Shown piece by piece: positions 1 to 60,777 of a DNA stretch of 64,000 nt. The notes under the pieces were generated by a model. The model ran no database searches and was not told the origin of the DNA. It saw only the letters and a program-made list of their open reading frames with translations. This DNA comes from Terriglobales bacterium (GTDB taxonomy: Bacteria; Acidobacteriota; Terriglobia; Terriglobales; Acidobacteriaceae): positions 1,169 to 65,168 of the forward strand of contig JBAVVP010000163.1 of assembly GCA_049697355.1 (NCBI GenBank), given 5' to 3'. How positions within the stretch are numbered: the first letter of the stretch is position 1; each line of letters starts with the position of its first letter. Made by a program: the position numbers and the translations under genes.

Positions 1-897
1 ATGAAATTGCGTGAAATGTACCGGCACATCCACGCCCAGGTTGGACTTGATCCAACGCGCCAAGCCGCGGAATTCGGTATCGCTGTCGTTCATCGCCGGC
101 ACCACCAGGTAGACGATCTCGGTCCACTTGTTCATCTTCCGCAAGGTGACCAGCGAGTCCAATACCGGCTTCAACTCACCCACGACAACATCTTTGTAGT
201 AAGACTCCGTGAAGGCTTTCAGATCGATCTTGACCGCGTCCATCTTTCCGTACGCCGCTTTCAGCGCCTCCTCTTGCATGTAGCCGTTCGACACGACTAC
301 GCTGCGGACTCCGGCCTCGTGCCCGGCATCGGCCGCATCCATCAGATACTCGCTGAAGATCACCGGCTCGCTGTAGGTGTAGGCAATCGTGGGACAGCTA
401 TTCTGTTTGGCCAGCTCGGCAACCAATTTCGGGGGCGCGTACTCGGCGGGAACCTGCTCCGGACGCACCTGGGAGATGTCCCAGTTCTGGCAAAATTTGC
501 AGTTGACGTTGCAGCCCGCCGTGGCCAATGAGAAAGCCAGTGTCCCCGGCAGGTAGTGGAACAGAGGCTTCTTCTCGACGGGATCGATGTGCGCGGCGCA
601 CACTCGCGAGTGCACCAGCGTGTGGTAGGTCCCTCCGCGATTCTCGCGCACGCCACAATAGCCGCGTTCCCGGTCTCCCACCGTGCATTCGCGCGGACAC
701 AGCTTGCACTTGATCTTCTTGTTTTGAAGTTTCTGGTAGAACTTCGCCTCGACGGTGAATCGCGAATCGTCCTGCTTTTGCGGACTCGCCCACGCCTGGG
801 TCGCGACAGGGAACTGGGCAAGCTCGCAGACGCCGAAAGCTGCTCCCGACGCCAGGGCGCACTTCAAGAACGAACGGCGATCGAGTTCACGCGACAT
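1..897 (-). CDS. Radical SAM enzyme, PflA-activase-like / AmmeMemoRadiSam-type, with N-terminal twin-arginine signal; 3' end runs off the left edge of the window
   Basis: Absent from the ORF track (no in-window stop). My reverse-complement translation from ATG (897-895) is open for all 299 codons to nt 1: MSRELDRRSFLKCALASGAAFGVCELAQFPVATQAWASPQKQ...KCKLCPRECTVGDRERGYCGVRENRGG...HIDPVEKKPLFHYLPGT...ATAGCNVNCKFCQNWDIS...VPVHFTQFH. CNVNCKFC is the CX3CX2C radical-SAM cluster motif. The DPVEKKPLFH block is typical of PflA-like/AmmeMemoRadiSam-type enzymes. DRRSFLK plus AWA-S is a Tat signal with an SPase I site. Confidence 0.8.
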   Translation of the reverse strand, partial: MSRELDRRSFLKCALASGAAFGVCELAQFPVATQAWASPQKQDDSRFTVEAKFYQKLQNKKIKCKLCPRECTVGDRERGYCGVRENRGGTYHTLVHSRVCAAHIDPVEKKPLFHYLPGTLAFSLATAGCNVNCKFCQNWDISQVRPEQVPAEYAPPKLVAELAKQNSCPTIAYTYSEPVIFSEYLMDAADAGHEAGVRSVVVSNGYMQEEALKAAYGKMDAVKIDLKAFTESYYKDVVVGELKPVLDSLVTLRKMNKWTEIVYLVVPAMNDSDTEFRGLARWIKSNLGVDVPVHFTQFH

Positions 898-956
898 GTT
901 GCACTCTCAATCACGCACCCTATCAGCCCGTGGTGCACGTCTAATCGCCGGCCCCA

Positions 957-1010
957 GCGCCTGAAGGCGCCTTCATAACGCGGCCCCTGCGGCACGCCTG
1001 AAGGCGTGCC
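957..1010. repeat. Two adjacent stem-loops sharing the 11-mer GCCTGAAGGCG in the DUF362 / radical-SAM intercistronic spacer
   Basis: GCGCC-TGAA-GGCGC at 957-970 and GGCACGCC-TGAA-GGCGTGCC at 991-1010, read directly from the sequence. No U-tract follows on either strand. Confidence 0.5.
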
Positions 1011-1041
1011 CTGATACGAAACGTATCTTCACCACAGGCTG

Positions 1042-2070
1042 CTATACCTCAACAACCGCTATTCTCCGCGGATCGTTTGTGCCCAGCCGATGCTGCGCGT
1101 CGGCGGCGGTCGCGATGTAGTGTGGCGCTCTTTTATCGCCTTCCAGCGTCTTCAATCCTTTTTCGGCCCGCTTGCGCTCGATGATTTGCCAGCCGGTGTA
1201 ATCGAGCGCGACGGGATCCTGCGAAACGATCAGGGCATTGTTCTTCCAACTGTATTCCGGCTTGTATCCGGGCCCACCTTCGAAGCAGGCCGTGGTCGCG
1301 TCGCAGATGGTCAACCGCATCTTGGTTCTGATTTCCGGCAGCATGTTCAAATCTGCGATATACGGATTGCAGCCGTTGGGGTGGTACTTGTTCGGGTTAT
1401 GAATGACTCCGTACATGTTCTTCAAGGCCATGGTTACGCCGGCGTCGTCATGGTCTTTCAGCACCGGGACATTGATCAGGACATGGCAGCGTTGCGTCAG
1501 GATCTTCGACAACCGGCTGCCCACGCTGCCATACATGGCCAGCTCGGGTTCGTAATCGATGCGATCGGTGCCAAAGCACTGCACGCGGTTTCCGCCCGTC
1601 GCTACATGAAATCCAACATGCTCCAGTTCGTCGCTATCGCGGTCCCAGACCACGATATCGTTCGCCTTGATTCCGGCCTCCTGCAACCGCTCGCAGATGG
1701 CTTCGACGAGTTGCAGGTTGCTGGAGAGTCCGCGTCCTCCAAGCGCATTGACTTTCAGTCCCACTGTCTCGCCCGGATGGACCAGCTTCTTCCACGTCTC
1801 GATCGGATTATCGCGGTCGAAGAAAGACTGCATGGCGCGATCCAGAAGGCTCAGAATCCGGCGCGAATCGACCGTGGCGCCGGCGCCGCGCAGCGCAGCG
1901 TCGTGCGCGACCACAACCCTGGACTTCGCGAGCGCCGTTACTTGTTGTTGCGGTTGTTGTTGTTCTGCTGATGCGAGCCGTTCCAGCCTGCCGCTTGCGC
2001 CCAGGACCGCAGCGCCGGTGAGGCACTTCCTAAGAAAATCCCGCCGACTGGTGCTGCGCGTTGCGCTCAT
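1042..2070 (-). CDS. DUF362-family protein with twin-arginine signal
   Basis: ORF track gives 1042..2160. I moved the start to ATG 2070 (GGAGAA upstream), giving MSATRSTSRRDFLRKCLTGAAVLGA with Tat motif SRRDFLR. The body has DUF362-like blocks as I recall them (GETVGLKVNALGG, VLKDHDDAGVTMALKNMYG). Confidence 0.75.
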   Translation of the reverse strand: MSATRSTSRRDFLRKCLTGAAVLGASGRLERLASAEQQQPQQQVTALAKSRVVVAHDAALRGAGATVDSRRILSLLDRAMQSFFDRDNPIETWKKLVHPGETVGLKVNALGGRGLSSNLQLVEAICERLQEAGIKANDIVVWDRDSDELEHVGFHVATGGNRVQCFGTDRIDYEPELAMYGSVGSRLSKILTQRCHVLINVPVLKDHDDAGVTMALKNMYGVIHNPNKYHPNGCNPYIADLNMLPEIRTKMRLTICDATTACFEGGPGYKPEYSWKNNALIVSQDPVALDYTGWQIIERKRAEKGLKTLEGDKRAPHYIATAADAQHRLGTNDPRRIAVVEV

Positions 2071-2172
2071 AAGGGTTCTCCGGTGAACCCAGGGCCAGCT
2101 CCGAAAGTCCTTAAGGTACCTATACCGCAATCCGTCTGACTTTTCAGTGACGAACAGCACTTCTGGCGATCG

Positions 2173-2670
2173 TCAGCGGGCAAGCCTCGGTTCGATGCCG
2201 CGCCCTAGTTGCAGAAGTGCCTGCTGTGTTTCCGGCGATTCCTCAAAGGCAACGATTCGCACCAGGTAAGCTCCCTTGCGGAAGACCAGGCTCTGGCTGG
2301 ACAAGCGCGCGGCGTCTCCCAGTTGAATCGGTTTCGCATCGACAGCCGGCTCCGATTCAAGAATCTTCTCGGCGCCTTCCGCGTTTCCCATGGCATAGAT
2401 GTCTGCTGTCGCTTCGACCTGGTTCTGGAACTTGTAGTCGGCCGTAGATACTCGCTGCACCCCAGCTTTCAAGTATCGTTCCGCCTCGCCGTCAATGTAC
2501 TTCCAGAGGTCGGCGGCCTCGAAGGTCCGTGTATCTCCGGTCTTCGCCCAGCCCGCGACCGGATTGGACGCGGGGAAAAGGGATGGTGCAGTTCCCGCCT
2601 GACGTTTGCATCCGGCGTTCAACAGCAGCGCGACACCGAGCATGATCGACAGCGCTTCGCGGGCCTTCAT
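2173..2670 (-). CDS. Small lipoprotein of unknown function (165 aa)
   Basis: Internal ATG 2670 of track ORF 2173..3099. It overlaps the stop of the upstream gene as ATGA (2667-2670). MKAREALSIMLGVALLLNAGC carries lipobox LNAGC. No catalytic motif recognised. Confidence 0.7.
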   Translation of the reverse strand: MKAREALSIMLGVALLLNAGCKRQAGTAPSLFPASNPVAGWAKTGDTRTFEAADLWKYIDGEAERYLKAGVQRVSTADYKFQNQVEATADIYAMGNAEGAEKILESEPAVDAKPIQLGDAARLSSQSLVFRKGAYLVRIVAFEESPETQQALLQLGRGIEPRLAR

Positions 2671-4325
2671 CTCGGCCTTTCCTTGTCTTTGTTTTTGCCC
2701 CGGTTCAGCAGAATCTGGTTGGTTCGCGATCGGCTCTCGCCTACGCTGGTCACGTAAACTGCCGGGCGATCCTGAACCGGGCAGGCGTACTCGCAAGCCC
2801 CGCAGCCCACGCAGCGATGCGGATCGACAAACGGTTGTTTGACCGGCTGCAGATGGCCCTCCGCATCGGCGACTTCGGCGGGCTGCAAATAGATGGCCTT
2901 GGGCGATGTCGGACACCACTCCTCGCACACAATGCACGGGGTTGCCATCGCCCACGGCAAACATCGTCCGCGATCCAGGAACGCTGTTCCTAGGCTGATG
3001 GGTTTGGCGTCGCTCGTGACCCGCGCCTCCCAGCCCTTTTCTTTCGCCGTGATCTCCCATATTGCGCCGGTCGGACAAACCTGGGAGCACAGCACGCAAC
3101 TGCTCTCACAGTAGCCAATCCGCGGCACCAAAACCGGCGTCCAGAGACCTTCCAGCCCCGCCTCGTTCAACGCGGGATGCAGCGCGTTGTTGGGACAGAC
3201 TTTCATGCACTCGCCACAGCGTATGCAACGCGACAGAAAGTCCCCTTCGTCCAATGCGCCCGGAGGACGCAGCAATCTCTCGTGGCGCTCGACGGCGAAT
3301 CCGGGCGTGCTGCGCAACAGTGGAACTACGGCTGCCCCGGCCGCCAATCCCGTGAGCACTTTGCGCCTCTGCAGGTTCACACCGATGGACTTTTGGGCGG
3401 GGAAGAACTTGAACTGCAGGCCGTGCTCCGGGCACTCATCAACACAGTTCAGGCAGAGATGACACTCCGCTTGACGCCACGGAACTCCGCCGATCGGATC
3501 ATCGCCGCCCTGGCAGCGCAGCAGGCAGCGATTGCAGTCCTCGCAGTGCTCCGGGCTCTTGACCAGTCCCAGAATCGACCAGCGCGAAACGATGCCGAGC
3601 AGCGCGCCCAGTGGGCAGAGTGCCCGGCACCAGAAACGGGTCACTCGAAAATTCAACGCCAAAAGAAAGATGAAGATGATGCCAAGCCAAATACCCTGGC
3701 GAAAGTACGGCTGTTTGAAGTTGAGCAGCCATCCTCCGAGAAGGAAGTTCAGCACGTTGCCTTCCAGCCCATTCCCCCAACGGCTGTGTTCGAGCACGCG
3801 CAGGCCAGCGCTCACGGCATAGTTCACACCGGGCAGGATAGACAGGCCCAGCGAGCGCACCAGCAACGAGAAGGGATCCAGCCATCCGACGACCCCCGTG
3901 CCCAACACAGCGGCGATTAAGGCCGCGACTAAGAGGTAGTACTTCGTCGTCTGCCAGCGCTTGTAGCGGTTCGATTCCAACAGTTGCTTTCCACGTTTGC
4001 GCTCGGATTTCAGGCTGCTGAAGAAGTGGTGAACGGAGCCCAGTGGACAAATCCAGCCGCAGAAGAAGCGCCCGAGCAACATGGTCGGAAGCAGAACGAC
4101 CAGGCTCCACAACAGGCCGCGGTACAGCGCGCGGCTGGAGAGAGCATTCGACAGCATTACCAAGGGATCGAATTGGAAAAACAACTGCACCGGGTAGGGG
4201 AGCCGAATCGCATTTCCGCCGGCGTGCAGCGATCCGCGAAACTCCGTGCGCAGCAGAAGGAACAAGAACAGGGAGAAGAAAATAATCTGCGAGAGCCAGC
4301 GCCACCTTGTCGGCTTAAGTCGCAC
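2667..4325 (-). CDS. Membrane polyferredoxin, NapH/MauN-like N-half fused to NapG/MauM-like C-half
   Basis: 552 aa; GTG start with AAGGAG 6 nt upstream. The multi-TM N-part has two CX3CP motifs (FFCGWICPLG, FWCRALCPLG) and two ferredoxin motifs (CEDCNRCLLRC, CHLCLNCVDECP). Then comes RRKVLTGLAAGAAVVPLL (Tat-like or anchor segment), followed by CIRCGECMKVCP, CVLCSQVCP, CIVCEEWCP and CVGCGACEYACP. Confidence 0.85.
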   Translation of the reverse strand: MRLKPTRWRWLSQIIFFSLFLFLLLRTEFRGSLHAGGNAIRLPYPVQLFFQFDPLVMLSNALSSRALYRGLLWSLVVLLPTMLLGRFFCGWICPLGSVHHFFSSLKSERKRGKQLLESNRYKRWQTTKYYLLVAALIAAVLGTGVVGWLDPFSLLVRSLGLSILPGVNYAVSAGLRVLEHSRWGNGLEGNVLNFLLGGWLLNFKQPYFRQGIWLGIIFIFLLALNFRVTRFWCRALCPLGALLGIVSRWSILGLVKSPEHCEDCNRCLLRCQGGDDPIGGVPWRQAECHLCLNCVDECPEHGLQFKFFPAQKSIGVNLQRRKVLTGLAAGAAVVPLLRSTPGFAVERHERLLRPPGALDEGDFLSRCIRCGECMKVCPNNALHPALNEAGLEGLWTPVLVPRIGYCESSCVLCSQVCPTGAIWEITAKEKGWEARVTSDAKPISLGTAFLDRGRCLPWAMATPCIVCEEWCPTSPKAIYLQPAEVADAEGHLQPVKQPFVDPHRCVGCGACEYACPVQDRPAVYVTSVGESRSRTNQILLNRGKNKDKERPR

Positions 4326-4709
4326 CCCGTACTCCTTGCCTCTCCACGCAGTGGATCGGCGCGGCGCACACCAAACCCTCGGTGCGTTCTGAGCGCCTGG
4401 CGCTGCCCACCCAATGTTCTGCCAAGCGCCTTCCGCTTTCTGTGACCAAGATCACTTGTTATGGCCCGCTGGGGCCGAGCGCAATCTGTGCGCTTCCCAC
4501 GTGATGGCATCAACAACAGTCAGAGTAGAAGGGGGAGGGCCTGGATCGCTGCGTCACAGCCATGATTGACGGGGGTCACTGCGCGCCGACCTGGACAGGA
4601 GTAGGGTCAAACTGGATTTGTTTACTCCGTTGCGGCCGTTTCCAAGTAAGCAGCTGGCTTGGTGGTGAACCAGAAAGTTGCCGGACGGACACCAGGAGGG
4701 GACAAGCCC

Positions 4710-6398
4710 ATGAGTGTTCGGCCCTCATACGAGCAACTCAACACGAATTTCGACTGGGCGAATGCTGAGCGCGAACTAGGCTATCGGCCGCGCGATTCGA
4801 TCAACATCGGTTGGATGTGCAGCGACCGCCTGTGCCAGCTGGGGATGGCCGAGAAGCTGGCGCTGCTCTGGGAAGACTATCAGGGCAACCAGAAGCGCTT
4901 CACCTACAACGATCTTCGTGTCTACTCCAACACCATCGCCCATTTCCTGGCCGGCCTGGGAATTCTCCCCGGCGAGCGGGTATGCCTCTTTTTAGACCGG
5001 GTACCCGAGTTGTACATCGGATTTCTGGGCATTCTGAAGATGGGCGCGGTGGCCCAGCCGCTGTTTTCGGCTTTCGGAGACGAATCTCTGTGTGTCCGGC
5101 TCAAAGACGCCGGGACGGCAGCGATCATTACCCAGAAGAAACATCTCCTTAAGGTCCGCAAGATCCGGGAGCAACTCCCGAACTTGCGGCACTTCATCGT
5201 GGTGGATGCGCCCCAGGCGTCTCTCCAGGAACGCGAGACTGCCTTCGCGATGGAACAATCGCCGCCCGTCGAGCACTTCCCAATCTACCCGACCAAGGCC
5301 GAATCTCCATCGGTTCTGCACTACACCTCTGGCACCACGGGCCAGCCTAAGGGTGCGCAGCACGTTCACTACTCGATCGTTTCGCAGTATCTCACCGCGA
5401 AATGGGTCCTCGATTTTCAGCCGGACGACATTTACTGGTGCAACGCCGACCCGGGTTGGGTCACCGGTACGTCCTACGGCATCATCGGTCCCTGGGCGAA
5501 CGGAATTACACAAGCGGTTCTGGACTCCGGTTTCAACGCGGAGAAATGGTACGAGTTCATCGAGAAGTACCACGTTACCGTCTGGTATTCGGCGCCGACT
5601 GCGATCCGCCTGCTCATGAAGGAGGGAGCGGAAATCATCCGCAAGCATGATCTCTCCAGCTTGCGGCATCTAGCCAGTGTGGGCGAGCCGCTCAACCCCG
5701 AGGCCGTGATCTGGTCGAGAGAAGTCTTCGGGAAACCGTTCCACGACACGTTCTGGCAGACCGAAACCGGCTGCATCGTAATTGCGAACTTTCCCGGGAT
5801 GCAAATCAAACCCGGCTCGATGGGCAAGCCGTTTCCGGGAATCACCGCAACCGTGCTGGATCCAAGAACCTACGAACCGGCCAACGCAGGTCTGATTGCG
5901 CTGCGCCCGGGCTGGCCGTCGCAGATTCGCGGTTATTGGAACAATCCCGCCGGATACCACGCCAAATTCAGGAATGGATGGTACCTCTGTGGCGACCGTG
6001 CCTCCATCGACACGGACGGCTATTTCTGGTTCATGGGACGCGATGACGACGTCATCAATACCGGCGGGCACCTGGTCGGCCCCTTCGAAGTCGAATCGGC
6101 CCTGCTGGGATGTCCGGCTGTCGCTGAGTCTGCCGCCGTTGCTAAACCTGACCCTGTCAACATGGAAGTTGTGAAAGCGTACGTGACTGTAAAGCAAGGT
6201 TTTCAACCATCCGACGACCTTGAACTGGAAATCATGAACCATATTCGCAAGCGGTTGTCGCCGCTGGCCATGCCCCAGGAAATCGAGTTCGTCGACTCGT
6301 TGCCTAAGACGCGCAGCGGCAAAATCGTGCGCCGCATCCTACGCTGCAAGGAGTTCCATGAGCCCGTGGGCGATCTTTCCACCATCATGGACGACTAA
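4710..6398 (+). CDS. AMP-forming adenylating ligase, AcsA-like (acyl-CoA or acyl-ACP synthetase)
   Basis: Track ORF 4659..6398; ATG 4710 is preceded by GGAGGGG. Adenylate-forming motifs are present: YTSGTTGQPKG, GEPLNPE, WQTETG, GDRASIDTDGYFWFMGRDDDVINTGGHLVGPFEVESAL, PKTRSGKIVRR. It is collinear with Bacillus-type AcsA as I recall it. Confidence 0.85.
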   Translation: MSVRPSYEQLNTNFDWANAERELGYRPRDSINIGWMCSDRLCQLGMAEKLALLWEDYQGNQKRFTYNDLRVYSNTIAHFLAGLGILPGERVCLFLDRVPELYIGFLGILKMGAVAQPLFSAFGDESLCVRLKDAGTAAIITQKKHLLKVRKIREQLPNLRHFIVVDAPQASLQERETAFAMEQSPPVEHFPIYPTKAESPSVLHYTSGTTGQPKGAQHVHYSIVSQYLTAKWVLDFQPDDIYWCNADPGWVTGTSYGIIGPWANGITQAVLDSGFNAEKWYEFIEKYHVTVWYSAPTAIRLLMKEGAEIIRKHDLSSLRHLASVGEPLNPEAVIWSREVFGKPFHDTFWQTETGCIVIANFPGMQIKPGSMGKPFPGITATVLDPRTYEPANAGLIALRPGWPSQIRGYWNNPAGYHAKFRNGWYLCGDRASIDTDGYFWFMGRDDDVINTGGHLVGPFEVESALLGCPAVAESAAVAKPDPVNMEVVKAYVTVKQGFQPSDDLELEIMNHIRKRLSPLAMPQEIEFVDSLPKTRSGKIVRRILRCKEFHEPVGDLSTIMDD

Positions 6399-6411
6399 GC
6401 CGAGGCCCGTT

Positions 6412-6678
6412 ATGGACGAAATCACGCAAGTAGTTCGCAATTACATAATGCGGGAATACCTGGAAGAAGGTGACGACCGAACCATTACCGAGACAACTCC
6501 ACTGATTTCTGGTGGCATTGTGGATTCGTTTTCCATGGTATCTCTGCTTCGTTTTCTGGAGAAGAAGTACTCGATTGACATTCCCGACGAATGCGCCACC
6601 CCCGAAGCTTTCGATACCGTCGAGCGTATCGCCGGACTGGTGCGACGTTTCCAGAAGGCTGAAGTCATCAAGGGCTAG
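6412..6678 (+). CDS. Stand-alone acyl carrier protein-like protein (88 aa)
   Basis: Track ORF 6358..6678, ATG at 6412: MDEITQVVRNYIMREYL...ISGGIVDSFSMVSLLRFLE. Small and acidic, with a DS(F) serine in the usual phosphopantetheine-attachment context. Confidence 0.75.
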   Translation: MDEITQVVRNYIMREYLEEGDDRTITETTPLISGGIVDSFSMVSLLRFLEKKYSIDIPDECATPEAFDTVERIAGLVRRFQKAEVIKG

Positions 6679-6749
6679 GGTGTGCCCGCCGCCGGACCCG
6701 GTTTGGCTTGGGCACCTACTGAAGAAAATCCTATTACGCGAGGCGCGTC

Positions 6750-7997
6750 ATGGCGTTTGCCGATGCAGTTCGCCACCGCTATCAGACCGATGTCGAGGGA
6801 ATCAAAAACGCAGGCCTGTTCAAAGAGGAAAGGTATATCCACTCGCCGCAGTCCTCGGAAATTGAGGTGGAGTTCCCGGTTGGCTCGGCAATCAGGAAGT
6901 GCATCAATGTTTGCGCGAACAACTACCTCGGACTCTCCAGCCATCCCGAGGTCATCGCCGCGGCGCACGCAGGCTTGGACGCACGGGGCTACGGCATGTC
7001 CTCAGTGCGTTTTATCTGTGGTACGCAGGATATCCACCGCGAGTTAGAGAATCGCCTGACCGCGTTCCTCGGTACCGAGGATACCTTGCTGTTCCCCTCC
7101 TGCATGGACGCAAATGCCGGCTTCTTCGAGGCCTGCCTGAATGAGCAGGATGTCATGATCGCCGATCGGCTCGTTCACGCCTCCATCGTGGATGGAATGC
7201 GTCTGTGCAAGGCGATGCAAGACACCTACAAGCACTCCGATATGGGGCATCTTGCGGAGAAGCTGCAAGAACACCAGGACAAGCGGTCGCGCATAGTGAT
7301 TACGGACGGCGTGTTCTCGATGGATGGCGATACCGCCAAGCTGGCTGACATCGTCGACCTGGCCGAGAAATACAACGCCATGGTGTTCGTGGATGACTCG
7401 CACGCCACCGGCTTCATGGGCAAAACCGGACGTGGGACGCACGAGCACTGCGGCGTGTTCGGCAAGATCGATGTCATCACCACGACGCTGGGAAAGGCGT
7501 TGGGCGGTGCTTCCGGAGGCTGCGTCAGCGGCCGTCGCGAACTGGTGGACATGTGCCGGCAGCGAGCGCGTCCTTACCTGTTTTCCAATGCCGTGGCGCC
7601 GGTGATCGTGGCGGGTGCGCTCAAGGTACTGGACCTAATCAGCGCCTCCACCGATCGTCGCGACAAACTGGAATGGAACGCGAGGTATTGGCGCGGCTTG
7701 CTCAAAGACGCTGGTTTCGATCTGAAGGAAGGGGATACCCCGATTGTGCCGGTCATGCTCTACGACGCCAAACTGGCGCAAGACTTTGCCCGCGATCTCT
7801 TTGACGAGGGCGTGTACGCCGTTGGGTTCTTCTTTCCGGTCGTGCCGAAAGGGCAAGCCCGGATTCGCACGCAACTGTCGGCGGCTCACGATAAACACCA
7901 TCTGGACGCCGCCATCGAGGGTTTCAAAAGAGTAGGGAAAAAACACGGCATTCTAGGTTTGGGAAAAAAGGAACTCATGGCGAGAGCCGTTGCGTAA
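6750..7997 (+). CDS. PLP-dependent alpha-oxoamine synthase, glycine C-acetyltransferase (Kbl)-like
   Basis: 415 aa; collinear with E. coli Kbl as I recall it (GLFKEER, NNYLGL, VRFICGTQD, DGVFSMDGD, VDDSHATGF, TLGKALGG with PLP lysine, RPYLFSN, PKGQARIRTQLSAAH). Confidence 0.9.
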   Translation: MAFADAVRHRYQTDVEGIKNAGLFKEERYIHSPQSSEIEVEFPVGSAIRKCINVCANNYLGLSSHPEVIAAAHAGLDARGYGMSSVRFICGTQDIHRELENRLTAFLGTEDTLLFPSCMDANAGFFEACLNEQDVMIADRLVHASIVDGMRLCKAMQDTYKHSDMGHLAEKLQEHQDKRSRIVITDGVFSMDGDTAKLADIVDLAEKYNAMVFVDDSHATGFMGKTGRGTHEHCGVFGKIDVITTTLGKALGGASGGCVSGRRELVDMCRQRARPYLFSNAVAPVIVAGALKVLDLISASTDRRDKLEWNARYWRGLLKDAGFDLKEGDTPIVPVMLYDAKLAQDFARDLFDEGVYAVGFFFPVVPKGQARIRTQLSAAHDKHHLDAAIEGFKRVGKKHGILGLGKKELMARAVA

Positions 7998-8093
7998 TCG
8001 GCGGATCATCTATTGATGAGAGCAGCCGAGTGCCGGTGCCGAGTTCATTGGGCAGTCAGCTCCGTGACGATTTGAGGAGGAAACGGAGGTCGT

Positions 8094-8276
8094 ATGCTCT
8101 GTGCAGAGCTTGAGGAACTGGAAGCGGAATTCGATGACATTCTTACCGCGCTCGAGAATCCGTACCTGACCGAGCGGGAAAAACGCTCTCTGCAGGCCGC
8201 GTATTCCCGGCTCAGTCACACCATCAAGGATCACCAGAAGCATGGTCACGATGGTGGCCCCTGCTTTGAAGAATAG
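8094..8276 (+). CDS. Small hypothetical protein (60 aa)
   Basis: GGAGG lies 5 nt upstream of the ATG. Acidic helical N-half and His-rich tail (HQKHGHDGG). No family recognised. Confidence 0.4.
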   Translation: MLCAELEELEAEFDDILTALENPYLTEREKRSLQAAYSRLSHTIKDHQKHGHDGGPCFEE

Positions 8277-8343
8277 CGGACTCTCCACTCGCATGAGGAG
8301 CGCTCCTCGTGCTTAACACTTTCATGAACGTAAAGGAGAAGTT

Positions 8344-8835
8344 ATGACAACCGCGACTCTGAAAGCAACCAAGGTCTTCAGCTATCTCCGACCCGAGGAG
8401 ATCGATTTCCTCAGTAATTACGCCAGCACCGAACAATACAAAGCCGGCGCAATCGTCTACCGCAAAGGGCAGCCCGCCGCCCGTGCGTACGTTTTACTCG
8501 AAGGGGAAGTCGTACTCCGCGCTCCCACTCCAGCGGGTCACGGCATTGTCATCGAAGAAGTGGGTCCCGGTACGATGATCGGGGCGAGCGTGCTGTTGGG
8601 GGAAACCTATATGGTGACGGCCCAGTGTGTCACCGACTGCAAGATCATGACTCTCGGCAAAACGGCCCTGGAGCGGATCGTGGACGCCAATCCGCAAATG
8701 GGATTGGTCATTGAGAAGTACCTGGCTGAGCATTACTACCAGAGAAGTCTCGACCTCATGCACATGCTGGAAGGCCTGATACGGGGAGAGCCGCCGGAGG
8801 AGCTGAAGCGGGGAGGACCTCTGCCGATCGTGTGA
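8344..8835 (+). CDS. Cyclic-nucleotide-binding (CAP effector) domain protein without output domain
   Basis: 163 aa with AAAGGAGAAG RBS. cNMP-binding pattern (YKAGAIVYRKGQPAARAYVLLEGEVVL...GPGTMIGASVLLGE). No HTH follows. Confidence 0.75.
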   Translation: MTTATLKATKVFSYLRPEEIDFLSNYASTEQYKAGAIVYRKGQPAARAYVLLEGEVVLRAPTPAGHGIVIEEVGPGTMIGASVLLGETYMVTAQCVTDCKIMTLGKTALERIVDANPQMGLVIEKYLAEHYYQRSLDLMHMLEGLIRGEPPEELKRGGPLPIV

Positions 8836-8878
8836 GACCCATGGCGAGATCGGGGTCTATGATCGGATCGATGGTTTC

Positions 8879-10177
8879 TTAGACGCGATACCAATCTTCC
8901 CGCGTCAGCGGCAAACCACTGCTGCCTTGTCCTGGCTTAGCGAGGAGTGTCTGATACACGTTCAGTCGCTCCGTGCGGAATGCGTGAGCGGAGCCGGCCA
9001 TGTAGAGGCGCCATATCCGGTAAGTTGTATCATCCGAGATTCCACGTGCCTGCTCGGCATGGGCTTCCAGACGCCGGACCCAGCGGTGCAGCGTTAATTC
9101 ATAGTGCTCGCGCAAACTCTCCACGTCCCGGACCTCAAACCCGCTCAGTTCCGCCGCTCGAAGGGTGGTACTGATCGGGACCATCTCCCCATCGGGAAAG
9201 ACATAGCGGTCGCAGAAAGACGGGCCCTGCCGGTGGTAGGTGGCGCTATAAGCAATCCCATGGTTCAGAAATACTCCCCCCGGCCGCAATAGCTCGTACG
9301 CTCGGGCGAAGTACTCCGGCAGAAATACCTCTCCCACGTGCTCAAACATCCCCACACTGACAATCTTGTCGTATAGCTGACCATGCTCAAGGTCACGGTA
9401 ATCTGCAACCTCTACGCGACAGCGGTCATTCAACCCCAATTCGCGCAGCCGTTGTCGGGCTAGTTCCGCCTGCGGCGCACTCAGCGTGATTCCTACCGCT
9501 TCCACGCCATAGTGGGCAGCGGCGTGCATGATCAATCCACCCCAACCGCAACCAATGTCCAAAAGACGCTGACCACGGCAGAGCCGCAGTTTTCTGCAGA
9601 TGTAATCCAGCTTCCTCTCCTGCGCCGAATCCAGATCTTCTTCCGGTGTGGCGAAGTAAGCGCAGGAGTAAACCATGTGCCGATCGAGCCACAGCGCGTA
9701 GAACTCGGCCGGAAGATTGTAGTGATAGCTGACGGCTTGGCGGTCACGATCTCGAGAATGAAGGGATCCGCTGAAATTGGCTGGTCGCCGGTCCTTATGA
9801 GCGCGGTCGCTTACCGGCAACTTCTGCAGTCGTTTAGCAAGATCAAAAGTCTTCCGCGGGTTGCGTTCTTGCCCAAGCATGGAATCCGCCAACTGGAAGA
9901 TTGCTTCGATGTCGCCCTCGATGTCGAAGTCATCGTAGATGTACGCTTCTCCGAGCGTGAGTTCGCTGGGGCAGGAAAACATCGCACGCAAGGCTCCTGG
10001 ATGCTTGAGCACCAACGTGAAGCGCGGTTGCGGTACCGCTCCCCAGGTGGCGCCGTCCCACAGCCGAACCTGAAAATCCCGGTTCGGGTAGTCTTCCAGG
10101 AGCGCCTCCAGGAACTCGGCGCTCGCCACTGAAGCCGTTTCCCTGAATAGAAAGTTCGCCAACGCTGCCATGCGCAC
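8879..10177 (-). CDS. cfa: Cyclopropane-fatty-acyl-phospholipid synthase family SAM methyltransferase
   Basis: 432 aa. SAM-binding LLDIGCGWGG and a CFA-synthase-family C-terminus (YMAGSAHAFRTERLNVYQTLL). Confidence 0.85.
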   Translation of the reverse strand: MRMAALANFLFRETASVASAEFLEALLEDYPNRDFQVRLWDGATWGAVPQPRFTLVLKHPGALRAMFSCPSELTLGEAYIYDDFDIEGDIEAIFQLADSMLGQERNPRKTFDLAKRLQKLPVSDRAHKDRRPANFSGSLHSRDRDRQAVSYHYNLPAEFYALWLDRHMVYSCAYFATPEEDLDSAQERKLDYICRKLRLCRGQRLLDIGCGWGGLIMHAAAHYGVEAVGITLSAPQAELARQRLRELGLNDRCRVEVADYRDLEHGQLYDKIVSVGMFEHVGEVFLPEYFARAYELLRPGGVFLNHGIAYSATYHRQGPSFCDRYVFPDGEMVPISTTLRAAELSGFEVRDVESLREHYELTLHRWVRRLEAHAEQARGISDDTTYRIWRLYMAGSAHAFRTERLNVYQTLLAKPGQGSSGLPLTREDWYRV

Positions 10178-10299
10178 CTCCCGGCACTCAGGCAGTACTC
10201 TGCCTGCTCCAAAATCCAGCGCTCCTTATATCCAGCAGTCCAAAACGTCCGGAGGCCGATTTGGGCACGTCCGTCTCTCAGACACCTTGAATCCTCCAC

Positions 10300-10818
10300 T
10301 CAAGCGGCAGTTTCGATCTTGTTCTGGGCAGCTGTGGGGAGCTCAAATTTCAGCACTCCCCCCTGCCATTGGACGACTGCGCGCTCCGGTATCACCTCCG
10401 TTGCAAGGTCGACGACTTCCAGGATTTGGTCGGGAACCGCGCTAGTCCGCCCGATGGTTTCGTCCTTGGCTTTTGCCCCACTCGTCTTCTTCTCACCGAG
10501 GATCGAGATGCGACTCGGCTCGATGCTAACTTCAAGTTCGGTCTGCTCAAAGCCGGCGACGTTAGCGTAAACACTGACCCGGTCTTTGGATTCTGACAAG
10601 GAAACCGATACCGGACAGAGCAGCTCAGATTCCGCTCGGAACCAGTCTTCCCGATCGTGACCATGCTCCTGGCCACGAGCTTCGAACAACTCATGTGCAC
10701 GCTGCGAAATCGCAAGCTGCACTTTTTGCACCTTCCGTTGGAGGTCTGCAGGATTGGATGGTTTTAGCAACACCACGGGTCGATCCGACTCGAGTTTCGC
10801 TGCCCTTGGAGACTTCAT
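10300..10818 (-). CDS. DUF2934-like N-terminal region fused to an Hsp20/alpha-crystallin domain
   Basis: 172 aa with strong RBS GAAGGAGGG. RAHELFEARGQEHGHDREDWFRAESEL resembles DUF2934. VSVYANVAGFEQTELEVSIEPSRISILGEKK...GGVLKFELP resembles an alpha-crystallin domain. Confidence 0.7.
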   Translation of the reverse strand: MKSPRAAKLESDRPVVLLKPSNPADLQRKVQKVQLAISQRAHELFEARGQEHGHDREDWFRAESELLCPVSVSLSESKDRVSVYANVAGFEQTELEVSIEPSRISILGEKKTSGAKAKDETIGRTSAVPDQILEVVDLATEVIPERAVVQWQGGVLKFELPTAAQNKIETAA

Positions 10819-10824
10819 GGCACC

Positions 10825-10850
10825 CTCCTTCGAATGTTGCGGTGAAGGAG
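10825..10850 (-). promoter_or_regulatory. SD-sequestering hairpin in the 5' UTR of the Hsp20-like gene (candidate RNA thermometer)
   Basis: The minus-strand mRNA reads ...gaug-CUCCUUC-accgcaacauuc-GAAGGAG-GGugcc-AUG. A 7-bp perfect stem pairs the SD (plus-strand 10825-10831) with an upstream anti-SD (10844-10850), with a 12-nt loop. Confidence 0.35.
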
Positions 10851-11027
10851 CATCGCTCGGCCTTTTGTCGCGAGCGGCACAGGCTTGGGCGAGCCGTTAT
10901 GAACCCTCCTGTGCAGGGGCACAGGACACACTTCCACACTTTCCATTCTGGGCAGAGGTTGCCTCGTATGCCGTGACGCGTGTCACCCATGCATGTGTTC
11001 CGGCGCAAACCGGGGAACGATCCGTCC

Positions 11028-59860: not shown

Positions 59861-60777
59861 ACAAGCTCAAGGTCGTCTTATCCTTAATTACCCGTGACAA
59901 CGACTATCAGCTGGAGCAAGCCAAGGCCGCCGAAACGGTGGCGCAACAACAGAACGTGGAACTGGAGATTTTCTACGCCGACAGCAACTCTGTCACCCAG
60001 AGCGCGCAACTGCTCGACGTAATTCACAAGTACAAGGCGGGGCTGAGCGCCATACTAGTCGAGCCTGCGGGAGGCACTGAATTTCCGCAGGTGAGTCGAG
60101 CCGCCGTCAGCGCGGGCATCGCATGGGTTGTTCTCAACCGCGATGCCAGTTCCCTGGCGGATTTGCGGGGGAACTTTCCAGCGCCGGCTTTTGCCGTCAG
60201 TTCCGACCACAAACAGGTGGGGCGCATTCAGGCGCAGCAACTCGCCGCGATTCTCCCGCCAGCCGCAACCGTCCTGTGCATTCAAGGTCCGTCAAATACC
60301 CTGGCCGCACAGCAGCGGCTCATTGGTCTTGAGGGTGCAAAGGCGGCGAGCATAACCCTCAAGCTGATGAAAAGCCATAATTGGACGGAGGAAGGCGGCT
60401 ATCACGCGGTCTCGTCGTGGTTGCGCCTGACTACCTCGCAGCAGCAGCCGCTTTGCGCCGTCGCCGCTCAGAATGACTCCATCGCCATTGGAGCGAGGAA
60501 AGCGTTTGAGGAGGCAAAGCTCTTAGTGCCCGGCGGGGCGCGGTCGCAATTGCTTTTCCTCGGAGTGGACGGGTTGCCCCGCACCGGGCAGGCCTTTGTC
60601 AACCGTGGTTTGCTGATCGCAACTGTGGTGGTGCCGCCCGTCGCTGGCCCGGCACTGGAAACTGTCGTGAAGGCCATCACTGCCAAGACCGTGCCACCCG
60701 AACTGCACTTGATTCCCAGCTACTCCTACCCGGACATCGAATCGCTCAGCCGAATCGCAGTGGTCACGGACCGATAG
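59857..60777 (+). CDS. Periplasmic-binding-protein-fold (ribose/LacI-core-like) sugar-binding domain protein lacking both signal peptide and HTH
   Basis: The ATG overlaps the GH115 stop (ATGA at 59857-59860). 306 aa, beginning directly with the first beta-strand of the fold (KLKVVLSLITRDNDYQLEQAKAAE...). Later AAQNDSIAIGARKAFEEA is typical of the PBP type I fold. Confidence 0.75.
   Translation: MNKLKVVLSLITRDNDYQLEQAKAAETVAQQQNVELEIFYADSNSVTQSAQLLDVIHKYKAGLSAILVEPAGGTEFPQVSRAAVSAGIAWVVLNRDASSLADLRGNFPAPAFAVSSDHKQVGRIQAQQLAAILPPAATVLCIQGPSNTLAAQQRLIGLEGAKAASITLKLMKSHNWTEEGGYHAVSSWLRLTTSQQQPLCAVAAQNDSIAIGARKAFEEAKLLVPGGARSQLLFLGVDGLPRTGQAFVNRGLLIATVVVPPVAGPALETVVKAITAKTVPPELHLIPSYSYPDIESLSRIAVVTDR

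Follow-up and report, generated by a model that had tools for sequence, protein, structure and literature searches.

An acidobacterial AmmeMemoRadiSam-type locus combining a NapH-NapG-like polyferredoxin with predicted export signals

Radical SAM enzymes are normally cytoplasmic, so export signals on one of them are unexpected. The locus described here raises this question: within positions 1-4325 of the window (the whole stretch of 64,000 nucleotides analysed, from a Terriglobales bacterium), a radical SAM gene with a Tat-type N-terminal signal lies downstream of genes for a polyferredoxin, a DUF6599 protein and a DUF362 protein. Does such an enzyme act outside the cytoplasm, and does the polyferredoxin serve it? 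At somewhat better than even confidence, we read the locus as an AmmeMemoRadiSam system turned towards the envelope, with export predicted from sequence and the polyferredoxin as its electron wire.

Gene content and order of the locus

Four co-directional genes occupy the minus strand, where the sequence-only reading had placed them (Table 1); the polyferredoxin TGA and the DUF6599 ATG overlap as ATGA. They make up the 5' part of an acidobacterial locus (Candidatus Sulfotelmatobacter-like) of seven genes, of which they are the first four. DNA of locus L007, 96.7% identical to window 1-10915, gives the remainder of the radical SAM gene and, beyond nt 1, a Sec-signal Memo-AMMECR1 fusion, a polytopic membrane protein that contains a spermidine-synthase-like domain, and another DUF362 protein, in that order. 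The anticipated synteny is real: relatives keep the gene order even where DUF362 identity has dropped to 58%. Memo-AMMECR1, suspected left of nt 1, indeed directly follows the radical SAM gene in close relatives (L002-L009, including L007, and L166, L167).

Table 1 Features of the locus in the window
Feature	Position (nt)	Strand	Basis
Polyferredoxin gene, 552 aa, GTG start, stop codon 2667-2669	2667..4325	-	ORF; Fer4_5 (E = 5e-15), NapH, NapG matches
NapH-like half, aa 1-319, four TM segments	3369..4325	-	Hydropathy, motifs, NapH NF007013 E = 5e-24 (below cut-off)
Internal twin-arginine motif R320-R321-K322, fifth TM segment VLTGLAAGAAVVPLL, Arg338	3312..3368	-	Motif reading; homologue conservation
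NapG-like half, aa 339-552, predicted on outer face	2670..3311	-	NapG NF007012 E = 7e-30 (below cut-off)
DUF6599 protein gene, 165 aa, ATG start	2173..2670	-	ORF; PF20244, E = 8e-20
DUF6599 N-terminal signal, aa 1-20, ending LLNAG-C	2611..2670	-	
DUF362 protein gene, 342 aa	1042..2070	-	ORF; PF04015, E = 2e-21
DUF362 Tat signal, aa 1-35, SRRDFLR ... ASA-E	1966..2070	-	TIGR01409
Spacer between DUF362 and radical SAM genes, 144 nt, structured	898..1041	-	RNA fold
AmmeMemoRadiSam-family radical SAM gene, first 299 of ~383 aa	1..897	-	TIGR04337; off window edge
Radical SAM Tat-type signal, aa 1-37, DRRSFLK ... AWA-S	787..897	-	

All families proposed beforehand were matched by HMM searches (TIGR04337, PF04015, NapH and NapG), the last two below cut-off. 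The radical SAM fragment scores 296.7 bits with TIGR04337 and the full-length homologue P0043 378 bits, against a cut-off of 220; by this profile the enzyme belongs to the AmmeMemoRadiSam family, as had been suggested. The spacer in front of its gene contains several GC-rich hairpins (fold -67.9 kcal/mol, z = -3.45 versus shuffles) and has no match in Rfam. No terminator-like site in 1-4800 rises above chance.

The AmmeMemoRadiSam system, reportedly discussed by Burroughs and colleagues in 2019, is represented in NCBIfam by models for AMMECR1 (TIGR04335), Memo (TIGR04336) and the radical SAM enzyme (TIGR04337). The locus resembles it in the enzyme's score above the family cut-off and in the Memo and AMMECR1 gene directly after it in close relatives. 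It differs in the predicted export signals of all its components, in having Memo and AMMECR1 as one fused protein, and in the addition of DUF362, the polyferredoxin, DUF6599 and the polytopic protein. In canonical signal-less loci (L132, L150, L164, L165), by contrast, the Memo and AMMECR1 genes are separate and signal-less, and DUF362 is absent; we refer to loci with signals as the exported type.

The polyferredoxin and its partners

The best NCBIfam matches of the polyferredoxin halves are NapG and NapH. The chain shares domain content and the predicted topology of its halves with the NapGH quinol dehydrogenase of periplasmic nitrate reductase and with MauM/MauN. However, its scores lie far below the NapGH equivalog cut-offs (104 versus 269 and 85 versus 234), its halves are fused into a single chain, and no nap or mau genes occur among the neighbours examined. 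Hydropathy places hydrophobic segments at 11-29, 66-89, 131-149 and 208-229. The NapH-like half has the two CX3CP (C89, C233) and two ferredoxin-type CxxCxxCxxxC motifs (C261, C288) read in it earlier, the latter pair predicted on the cytoplasmic side, and K/R-rich loops at 95-130 and 229-235. Four [4Fe-4S]-type Cys motifs follow in the NapG-like half, at C367, C406, C455 and C505; the pattern CxxCxxCxxxCP, first assigned to all four, holds for C367 and C505, whereas the motif at C406 is Cx3CxxCxxxCP and that at C455 Cx8CxxCxxxCP.

A guide to topology is the MLMS-1 polyferredoxin (Q1NSB0), whose insertion by Sec plus Tat was shown experimentally: reporter fusions revealed that its fifth TM segment depends on Tat, and replacing RR by KK abolishes export (Tooke et al. 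2017, eLife 6:e26577, PMC5449189). That work treats membrane insertion only and gives no partners or function. Residues 2-340 of the window protein align with it end to end (39% identity, E = 9e-55) across the RR motif and fifth TM segment, the window motif and segment pairing with RRR-LLGAAAAGLVVGPLLR. Both are NapH-NapG fusions with five TM segments, an RR before a weakly hydrophobic fifth, a positive charge after it and four outward-facing clusters, and the RR/KR motif, weakly hydrophobic segment and subsequent Arg are conserved in homologues. The alignment supports the original expectation that the NapG-like half should face outward. Because a polyferredoxin of this type was already described, the claim of a system without precedent narrows to the combination, which is new: the window protein, unlike that of MLMS-1, comes with links to a radical SAM system as well as to DUF362 and DUF6599. 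In L125 polyferredoxin and DUF6599 form one chain, DUF6599 being C-terminal. The DUF6599 protein is a putative lipoprotein by its signal. The signal recurs in relatives; of the lipobox first read there, the Cys closing the h-region recurs in most of them, while the Asn at -3 is atypical.

How tightly is this module tied to the radical SAM enzyme? NapH-like halves are enriched in exported-type loci, yet occur in only 15/108 of them (~14%; 1/54 in the comparison), and polyferredoxin and DUF6599 are accessory. The relay was also called quinol-fed; we found no support for this, and it is thermodynamically doubtful because the potential of menaquinol is far too positive for reducing a radical SAM cluster. 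These observations would suit two independent neighbours, with polyferredoxin-DUF6599-DUF362 a self-contained extracytoplasmic oxidoreductase, quinol-oxidising or quinone-reducing, that would not feed the radical SAM enzyme, and DUF362-radical SAM-Memo/AMMECR1 a separate system. Judged by redox potentials, quinol-level electrons could not reduce the cluster, and ~86% of exported-type loci lack the polyferredoxin. Polyferredoxin and DUF6599 form their own module with DUF362 paralogues in four loci: as a separate polyferredoxin-DUF6599-DUF362-DUF362 operon on the other strand in L011 and L015, and with a DUF362 of its own in L035 and L043. There the polyferredoxin accompanies DUF6599 and DUF362 and not the radical SAM gene, which counts against the electron-wire reading. 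NapH-like modules are, moreover, used with many different oxidoreductases (PMC8238504).

We nevertheless regard this separation as unlikely, at about one chance in five. The seven-gene order, the polyferredoxin/DUF6599 overlap and the closeness of DUF362 and radical SAM genes persist to 58% DUF362 identity, the enrichment given above points the same way, and the radical SAM clade is repeatedly joined to electron-transfer modules. Fusions in this clade comprise FMN_bind+Fer4_5+radical SAM, DsbD_2+radical SAM and DsbD_2+FMN_bind+Fer4_5+radical SAM; other relatives adjoin FMN_bind/NapH-like and DsbD_2 modules. In P0274 and P0294, one N-terminal anchor is followed by FMN_bind, with the DxVSGAT flavinylation motif, and the radical SAM domain, and no membrane segment lies between; such FMN_bind domains sit outside the cytosol (PMC8238504). 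These arrangements recall the flavinylated NapH-like/NosR/PceC and DsbD modules that supply extracytosolic enzymes with electrons across the membrane in a modular way (Meheust et al. 2021, eLife 10:e66878, PMC8238504); the main text of that paper does not mention radical SAM partners. In the window polyferredoxin, though, the outside part is NapG-like Fe-S and not an FMN-binding domain.

Export signals and the site of chemistry

Topology and signal calls are regex and hydropathy heuristics. Of the two Tat motifs first described as textbook, that of DUF362 passes its curated model (TIGR01409, 23.4 bits, cut-off 16.7), while the radical SAM N-terminus falls just under both curated cut-offs (TIGR01409, 14.8 bits for 16.7; PF10518, 20.3 bits for 22.7), which counts against export. 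A start downstream of the RR motif is contradicted for DUF362 by upstream in-frame stops in relatives, which fix the Met before it. For both proteins the motifs are kept across many phyla and not in this genome alone. In the radical SAM enzyme, RRxFL and an h-region are found in 33 of the best 150 50%-identity cluster representatives and recur, in many cases together with an AxA site, at an equivalent position in at least 15 phyla, while the family model begins only at residue 58. Orthologue N-termini reach 21.7, 17.0 and 26.6 bits on TIGR01409, and in almost every one of the 84 loci L002-L085 the enzyme has an N-terminus of Tat type or, in a few, of Sec type; the latter replaces the Tat signal in L067, L071-L073 and L079.

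Memo-AMMECR1 follows suit, with classical Sec or lipoprotein signals (in L002, MNIKMRPKIYWLAVLFIAILAIAALQQVCA-AD) in 51/55 exported-type loci, its signals too being conserved in at least 15 phyla. Its signal and that of the radical SAM enzyme co-vary imperfectly (51/4 versus 7/4, p = 0.02, Fisher p-values being overstated because the loci lack phylogenetic independence), because in a third class (L103, L121, L141) Memo-AMMECR1 is membrane-anchored while the radical SAM enzyme lacks a signal. In a neighbour-joining tree, the signal-bearing and fused radical SAM enzymes form a group apart from the signal-less bulk.

Export of the enzyme need not mean that it acts outside. With a probability again near one in five, its chemistry may come first: drawing on AdoMet and reductant in the cytoplasm, it would modify a partner, DUF362 being the likeliest, or load it, and Tat would then carry the complex out, leaving DUF362, wired to the polyferredoxin, as the sole active catalyst outside. 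AdoMet supply outside the cell would no longer be a problem; we know of no AdoMet or low-potential reductants outside the cytoplasm, which counts against exported chemistry. The gene directly upstream encodes DUF362 in 56/95 loci of the exported type and in 0/35 of those without signals, an almost obligatory adjacency, and in nine Aminicenantes-type loci (L027, L028, L035-L038, L040, L049, L055) DUF362 lacks its own signal beside a radical SAM enzyme that has one, the pattern of a Tat hitch-hiker. The nearest characterised radical SAM relatives are protein-activating, namely glycyl-radical-enzyme activases (PFL-AE, TIGR02493). The window enzyme scores only 64 bits there (cut-off 232), adds an N-terminal CxxCxxxC...C and C-terminal Cys pairs to its CX3CX2C, and has no glycyl-radical enzyme gene nearby.

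The structure model of DUF362 (AF2, pLDDT 76.6) suits a loaded partner. In the PDB, significant fold matches to it are confined to LarA-family enzymes (probability ~1.0), which predicts a LarA-like fold. Model confidence is low in HNPNKYH, the loop conserved most strongly, as might be expected of a cofactor site. DUF362 and LarA-family DUF2088 share Pfam clan CL0471 (PMC11770544). The protein is nevertheless distinct from the nickel-pincer-nucleotide racemases, with TM-scores of only 0.37-0.42, 11-15% identity, no DUF2088 match and a different invariant set (K106, K205, H207, K217, N225-H230). Against chemistry before export stands Memo-AMMECR1, the family's defining partner: being Sec-signalled, it crosses the membrane unfolded and so could meet the radical SAM enzyme outside only. 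The fusions to extracytosolic FMN_bind suggest that reductant is needed outside, and the outward AdoMet-type domain of the polytopic protein suggests AdoMet chemistry there in any case.

A last alternative is that the N-terminal arginines are no export signals, that the soluble parts work inside the cell or at the membrane's inner face, and that the locus is a usual AmmeMemoRadiSam system joined by additional ferredoxin-type proteins. It would suit the heuristic calls, the window enzyme's own score and the characterised radical SAM enzymes, to our knowledge all cytoplasmic, but is improbable given the motif conserved ahead of the family model, the orthologues that pass TIGR01409, the Tat-to-Sec exchange, the signals on Memo-AMMECR1 in the same loci and the chains in which a signal anchor precedes radical SAM domains fused with FMN_bind, CBM_11 and beta-propeller domains.

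A predicted envelope-facing system

In the envelope-facing reading that we favour, the radical SAM enzyme and DUF362 would fold and acquire their metals in the cytoplasm before Tat export, Memo-AMMECR1 would leave by Sec, and the DUF6599 protein would be exported and probably lipid-anchored. For the polyferredoxin we expect insertion through both Sec and Tat, with the NapH-like Fe-S centres inside and the four-cluster NapG-like half outside. We infer that it wires electrons through the membrane to DUF6599 and DUF362 on the outer face, and to the radical SAM enzyme directly or via DUF362.

AdoMet might come from the spermidine-synthase-like protein, present in 55/81 exported-type loci against 6/25. 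Its AdoMet-type motifs are conserved, and a positive-inside analysis of 62 homologues places this domain outside, making it a candidate supplier or user of AdoMet there. This protein and the Memo-AMMECR1 fusion are conserved more widely than the polyferredoxin. Export signals on AmmeMemoRadiSam-type components appear not to have been described before. Together, the radical SAM enzyme and Memo-AMMECR1 may modify a putative envelope or lipid-linked substrate.

The AmmeMemoRadiSam locus and its gene content

The left end of the window (1-4325) carries four genes, for a polyferredoxin, a DUF6599 protein, a DUF362 protein and a radical SAM enzyme cut by the window's edge. The re-derived ORFs agree in coordinates and in head-to-tail, minus-strand layout with those of the sequence-only reading. 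The 165-aa protein reaches 71.6 bits on PF20244 (DUF6599; Pfam gathering threshold 27). On TIGR04337, the radical SAM model of the AmmeMemoRadiSam set (cut-off 220), the 299-aa fragment scores 296.7 bits and a full-length homologue, P0043, 378.3 bits. A promoter and terminator scan gave no hit above chance, terminator-like sites between the four genes included, and no Rfam family was found in window 1-4800. Between the DUF362 gene and that of the radical SAM enzyme, a 144-nt spacer (898-1041, minus strand) folds into multiple GC-rich hairpins (-67.9 kcal/mol, z = -3.45); a UUCA loop is common to two of these, and none matches Rfam. A similar 15-mer occurs once, at 60221-60235.

Features of the window and of related loci (L-numbers); positions without a locus prefix refer to the window
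Feature	Position	Strand	Remarks
Polyferredoxin, 552 aa, GTG start	4325->2667	-	Fer4_5 E = 5e-15; NapG E = 7e-30; NapH E = 5e-24
DUF6599 protein, 165 aa, ATG overlapping polyferredoxin TGA	2670->2173	-	PF20244 E = 8e-20
DUF362 protein, 342 aa	2070->1042	-	PF04015 E = 2e-21
AmmeMemoRadiSam radical SAM enzyme, 299 codons to the left edge	897->1	-	TIGR04337
Memo+AMMECR1 fusion, 530 aa	directly after radical SAM gene		L002-L009 (including L007), L166, L167
Polytopic protein, ~780 aa, central spermidine-synthase-like domain	L002:12790-15132; L007:12731-15121	-, convergent	PF01564, NF037959
Second DUF362 paralogue, 329 aa, after spermidine-synthase-like gene	L002:15212-16201; L007:15174-16143; L166:15264-16253		
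AMP-binding enzyme	4659-6398		possible lipid-modification cluster
Small ORF, 106 aa	6358-6678		no Pfam match; possible lipid-modification cluster
Class I/II aminotransferase	6750-7997		could be alpha-oxoamine synthase; possible lipid-modification cluster
cNMP-binding protein	8344-8835		possible lipid-modification cluster
CMAS-type cyclopropane/methyl fatty-acid synthase, in the possible lipid-modification cluster	8879-10177	-	

Among public sequences, L007 (contig CAVQHM010000010.1 of an uncultured Acidobacteriaceae MAG) comes closest, being 96.7% identical to and colinear with window 1-10915; the nearest named homologues belong to Candidatus Sulfotelmatobacter and Terriglobales. Exact-sequence look-ups gave no match for the window's DUF362 protein and polyferredoxin, and only a 2-kb contig for DUF6599. 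In L007, as throughout L002-L009, three genes follow the radical SAM gene: a Memo+AMMECR1 fusion, a polytopic spermidine-synthase protein and a second DUF362 paralogue. Memo or AMMECR1 genes had been suspected to the left of nucleotide 1, and this is where the fusion lies in L007 and its relatives. The seven-gene order is repeated, by independent gene calls with precomputed Pfam labels, in contigs whose DUF362 protein is only 58% identical to the window's, one of them labelled Methylomirabilota. Window 1-4325 thus represents the 5' portion of a complete AmmeMemoRadiSam locus. The N-terminus of the second DUF362 paralogue (SRREALIKLLRLGGVAAGTAGLGFWLS) is not recognized by TIGR01409 and resembles a membrane anchor with RR in front of it more than it does a cleaved signal. 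Divergent from the locus, window 4659-10177 holds a possible lipid-modification cluster, which is colinear in L007; L002, L005 and L166 lack it upstream of their loci.

The reading that we favour, by a modest preference, is that of an envelope-facing AmmeMemoRadiSam system in which the polyferredoxin would be an electron wire through the membrane, serving DUF6599/DUF362 and the radical SAM enzyme.

The polyferredoxin and its DUF6599 and DUF362 partners

The polyferredoxin is of an already known kind (Tooke et al. 2017, PMC5449189): polytopic fusions of NapH and NapG in which a twin-arginine motif inside the chain precedes the fifth membrane segment. Tat-dependent translocation of the C-terminal domain was shown for the MLMS-1 protein only, in E. 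coli reporters, where the domain behind the fifth segment was exported only with Tat and the RR pair (PMC5449189). With the MLMS-1 reference (Q1NSB0, residues 5-360; Supplementary file 1 of Tooke et al. 2017, PMC5449189), residues 2-340 of the window protein share 39% identity (E = 9e-55), in an alignment that spans window NLQRRKVLTGLAAGAAVVPLLRS and MLMS-1 DLGRRRLLGAAAAGLVVGPLLRVS. Both proteins have in common the homologous membrane part, the RR pair before a weakly hydrophobic fifth segment and the positive charge. The layout in the window is R320 R321 K322 - VLTGLAAGAAVVPLL - R338; the fifth segment alone falls under the hydropathy threshold, which the other four pass, and the arrangement of twin arginine, fifth segment and following Arg is kept in homologues. 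The second and fourth segments are each followed by a K/R-rich loop; the topology predicted from this has both CX3CP motifs and the two ferredoxin motifs on the inner side, and the NapG-like half with its four clusters on the outer side. These features agree with the family of Tooke et al. and with the topology of E. coli NapH, reportedly described by Brondijk et al. 2004. The motifs listed in the sequence-only reading were right, except that it took all four C-terminal cluster motifs as canonical: CxxCxxCxxxCP holds for two of the four, the remaining two being Cx3CxxCxxxCP and Cx8CxxCxxxCP.

Against NapG and NapH the window protein scores 104 and 84.9 bits, well under the respective equivalog cut-offs of 269 and 234. 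No napA, napB or napC was found among the window neighbours to about 12.9 kb (AMP-binding enzyme, aminotransferase, cNMP-binding protein, CMAS methyltransferase, DUF2934 and dCache proteins) or in related loci. Given the sub-cut-off scores and the lack of nap/mau genes among the neighbours examined, a bona fide NapGH or MauMN system was rejected.

Outside the radical SAM operon, the polyferredoxin goes with DUF6599 and DUF362 paralogues (L011, L015, L035, L043), and in L125 (2540-4732, plus strand) a DUF6599 domain is fused to its C-terminus, which ties DUF6599 to the outward-facing NapG-like half. From this shared travel and the fusion, DUF6599 and DUF362 emerge as the polyferredoxin's most direct partners. 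The polyferredoxin is no universal partner of exported-type radical SAM genes, those whose product has a Tat- or Sec-type N-terminus. That the locus holds two independent modules, neighbours by chance, is an alternative to the electron wire that we consider improbable; the repeated seven-gene order also counts against it.

The putative lipobox of DUF6599 reads L-N-A-G-C, with Asn at -3 (consensus tested, [LVI][ASTVI][GAS]C). Its relatives have D, Q, N or G at this position and usually keep the Cys, which the Aminicenantes homologues lack. A single-sequence structure model was poor (pLDDT 54), and the fold search returned no credible match for this protein. PDB sequence searches with DUF362, DUF6599 and the radical SAM enzyme gave nothing useful.

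Signal and topology calls are heuristic throughout; the curated Tat cut-offs are 16.7 bits for TIGR01409 and 22.7 bits for PF10518. The DUF362 N-terminus (MSATRSTSRRDFLRK ... LASA/EQ) passes the former with 23.4 bits alone and 19.5 bits within the whole protein, and relatives have upstream in-frame stops that exclude any other start. The AlphaFold model (pLDDT 76.6, pTM 0.78) has as its only significant PDB matches LarA-family nickel-pincer-nucleotide racemases (probability ~1.0, TM-score 0.37-0.42, identity 11-15%). LarA (DUF2088) and DUF362 have a Pfam clan in common, which fits the match, but the likeness is at the fold level only: the window protein matches PF04015 and not DUF2088. Invariant residues are K106, K205, H207, K217 and N225-P226-N227-K228-x-H230; model confidence is low in the invariant loop, which is what a cofactor site would show. 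The reading of DUF362 as an Fe-S protein was rejected, since the subfamily has no conserved Cys motif.

In nine Aminicenantes-type loci (L027, L028, L035-L038, L040, L049, L055), DUF362 lacks a signal and starts at the mature domain, and a Tat signal is retained on the radical SAM enzyme next to it; the DUF6599 gene is divergent there, and no polyferredoxin lies within 10 kb. A signal-less DUF362 beside a signal-bearing enzyme suggests a complex exported together, by Tat hitch-hiking. The chemistry might also precede export, the radical SAM enzyme being a maturase and Tat carrier for DUF362; this we regard as unlikely, on a par with chance neighbourhood.

Predicted export signals and electron-transfer modules of the radical SAM enzyme

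The N-terminus of the window's radical SAM enzyme (MSRELDRRSFLKCALASGAAFGV ... AWA/SP) stays just under both cut-offs, with 14.8 bits on TIGR01409 and 20.3 bits on PF10518. Those of orthologues reach 21.7, 17.0 and 26.6 bits on TIGR01409, for segments that had a few flanking residues added, the matched stretches lying inside real residues. TIGR04337 matches the full-length homologue only from residue 58 onward, which makes its first 57 residues an addition to the core of the family. In an alignment of 21 orthologues, chosen for having the RR motif, this motif is invariant. The first two homologue searches found only relatives more than 82% identical, uninformative on diversity, and an initial alignment of 21 sequences proved too divergent to serve in the locus scan. 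A HMMER scan of 1.84 billion cluster representatives retrieved 1444 relatives at E < 1e-30; 33 of the best 150 of these have RRxFL followed by an h-region, at 37-54% identity to the query.

Scanning one genome per species gave 80 loci, from Acidobacteriota, Eisenbacteria, Calditrichota, KSB1, Aminicenantes, Zixibacteria, Latescibacterota, Poribacteria, Planctomycetota, Deltaproteobacteria, Omnitrophota, Elusimicrobia, Lentisphaerae, WOR-3 and others. In nearly all of them the N-terminus of the enzyme is of Tat type, and in a few Elusimicrobia and Omnitrophota it is of Sec type. Memo-AMMECR1 proteins of exported-type loci carry a classical Sec or lipoprotein signal (MNIKMRPKIYWLAVLFIAILAIAALQQVCA/AD in L002). 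In contrast, the canonical AmmeMemoRadiSam system is implicitly signal-less and cytoplasmic. As far as sequence can tell, the export signals are conserved and no local accident; that the RR signals are non-functional seems very improbable.

In some close relatives (L002:10001-10120; P0004, P0012, P0100) an insertion of ~30 aa separates the conserved start MxRELD from the RR motif. Database entries for this protein, of 373-421 aa, suggest inconsistent start-codon calls. A glycyl-radical enzyme activase was rejected on scores of 63.9 against 231.75 (TIGR02493) and 45.8 against 174.35 (TIGR02494).

As controls, metagenome contigs were scanned with signal-less radical SAM queries, which gave a set of mixed composition, and features were counted by heuristic calls. 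A signal on Memo was found in 51/55 exported-type vs 7/11 signal-less loci (Fisher p 0.02), DUF362 as the direct upstream neighbour of the radical SAM gene in 56/95 vs 0/35 (p 3e-11), a NapH-like half in 15/108 vs 1/54 (p 0.02) and the polytopic spermidine-synthase-like protein in 55/81 vs 6/25 (p 1.5e-4), p-values that are overstated because the loci are related to each other. The direction of all four differences is clear. A rough tree of 117 representatives, built by neighbour joining, groups the Tat-type, Sec-type and membrane-fused forms with one another and apart from the signal-less bulk. A third type of locus (L103:8001-14707, L141:396-6631, L121, L157) combines a signal-less radical SAM enzyme with a Memo-AMMECR1 protein that has a single N-terminal membrane anchor, and makes the family heterogeneous; L103 and L141 encode a protein of more than 1100 aa matching FMN_bind, NapH-like and spermidine-synthase-like queries together.

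Several relatives are fused to electron-transfer modules: FMN_bind + Fer4_5 of NapH/NosR type (P0266, P0272), DsbD_2 (P0277, P0280), or DsbD_2 + FMN_bind + Fer4_5 (P0314). Others stand behind a signal anchor, fused to a beta-propeller (P0252) or to CBM_11 (P0256). Most informative are the cluster representatives P0274 and P0294: a single N-terminal anchor is followed by FMN_bind, which has the flavinylation motif DxVSGAT, and by the radical SAM domain, and no membrane segment separates these two domains. Such FMN_bind domains carry electrons outside the cytosol (PMC8238504), which puts the radical SAM domain on that side as well; the flavin domain could be its natural flavodoxin-like reductant. 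Stand-alone neighbours of the radical SAM gene include DsbD_2 + FMN_bind + NapH-like (L094) and DsbD_2-like proteins (L071, L072, L087).

A Pfam census of 128 neighbouring ORFs returned Spermine_synth as the sole recurrent extra family near radical SAM genes. It corresponds to the commonest extra neighbour of exported-type genes across phyla, a polytopic protein of ~750 aa (PF01564 E = 3e-27; NF037959, 'fused MFS/spermidine synthase', 54.7 bits, cut-off 40) in which GxGxG, acidic-loop and D..P motifs are conserved. Its loops alternate cleanly in K+R count, taken as the mean of 62 homologues. By the positive-inside rule, seven segments precede the AdoMet-type domain and six to seven follow, with the domain outside. 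This predicted second AdoMet-dependent domain on the outer face makes AdoMet availability outside more plausible, and the protein may be a candidate AdoMet conduit or co-enzyme.

Proposed electron path and location, and significance

In the favoured reading, the polyferredoxin would pass electrons across the membrane to DUF6599/DUF362, and the radical SAM enzyme would receive them directly or via these proteins. Radical SAM clusters need donors near -450 mV, and menaquinol lies near -70 mV. We found no support for the 'quinol-fed' relay of the sequence-only reading; a cytoplasmic donor of low potential, feeding in at the clusters on the NapH side, would be more plausible than quinol. Alternatively, the polyferredoxin might drain electrons from a DUF362 oxidoreductase.

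More tentatively, a large and widespread clade within the AmmeMemoRadiSam radical SAM enzymes, in at least 15 phyla, might truly work outside the cytoplasm, with a dedicated transmembrane electron supply and an outward AdoMet-binding polytopic protein; we hold this for possible, although rather doubtful. Electrons would then come from the NapH-NapG polyferredoxin here and from FMN_bind/NapH-like or DsbD-like modules elsewhere; the outward domain of the polytopic protein would deliver or use AdoMet there, and the chemistry would act on an envelope or lipid-linked substrate. These phyla are mostly uncultured and assumed to be mostly anaerobic. We know of no earlier case of radical AdoMet chemistry in the periplasm.

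The polyferredoxin type, the AmmeMemoRadiSam triad (NCBIfam) and the modular NapH-like supply to extracytosolic enzymes (Meheust et al. 2021, PMC8238504) are already described. In the full-text literature we found no description of radical SAM enzymes that are exported or periplasmic, the pairing of DUF362 with radical SAM, DUF6599, the seven-gene locus or AmmeMemoRadiSam biology. The triad is said to be discussed in Burroughs et al. 2019, which may mention secreted versions.

Radical SAM enzymes are regarded as strictly cytoplasmic. They depend on AdoMet, on an electron donor of very low potential and on being shielded from oxygen. A clade with export signals on the radical SAM enzyme, Memo-AMMECR1 and DUF362, and with repeated fusion or linkage to transmembrane electron-transfer modules, challenges this view; a conserved, apparently exported system of this type would surprise a radical SAM or Tat specialist. 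It makes testable how AdoMet and low-potential electrons get outside the cell, and reporter assays for the export of the enzyme already exist. If export were disproved, a conserved DUF362-radical SAM partnership would still be defined and worth characterising. For the polyferredoxin family, so far only a model of membrane insertion, the physiological partner set becomes testable, and an envelope location would narrow the candidate substrates of the enigmatic Memo, AMMECR1 and DUF362 families.
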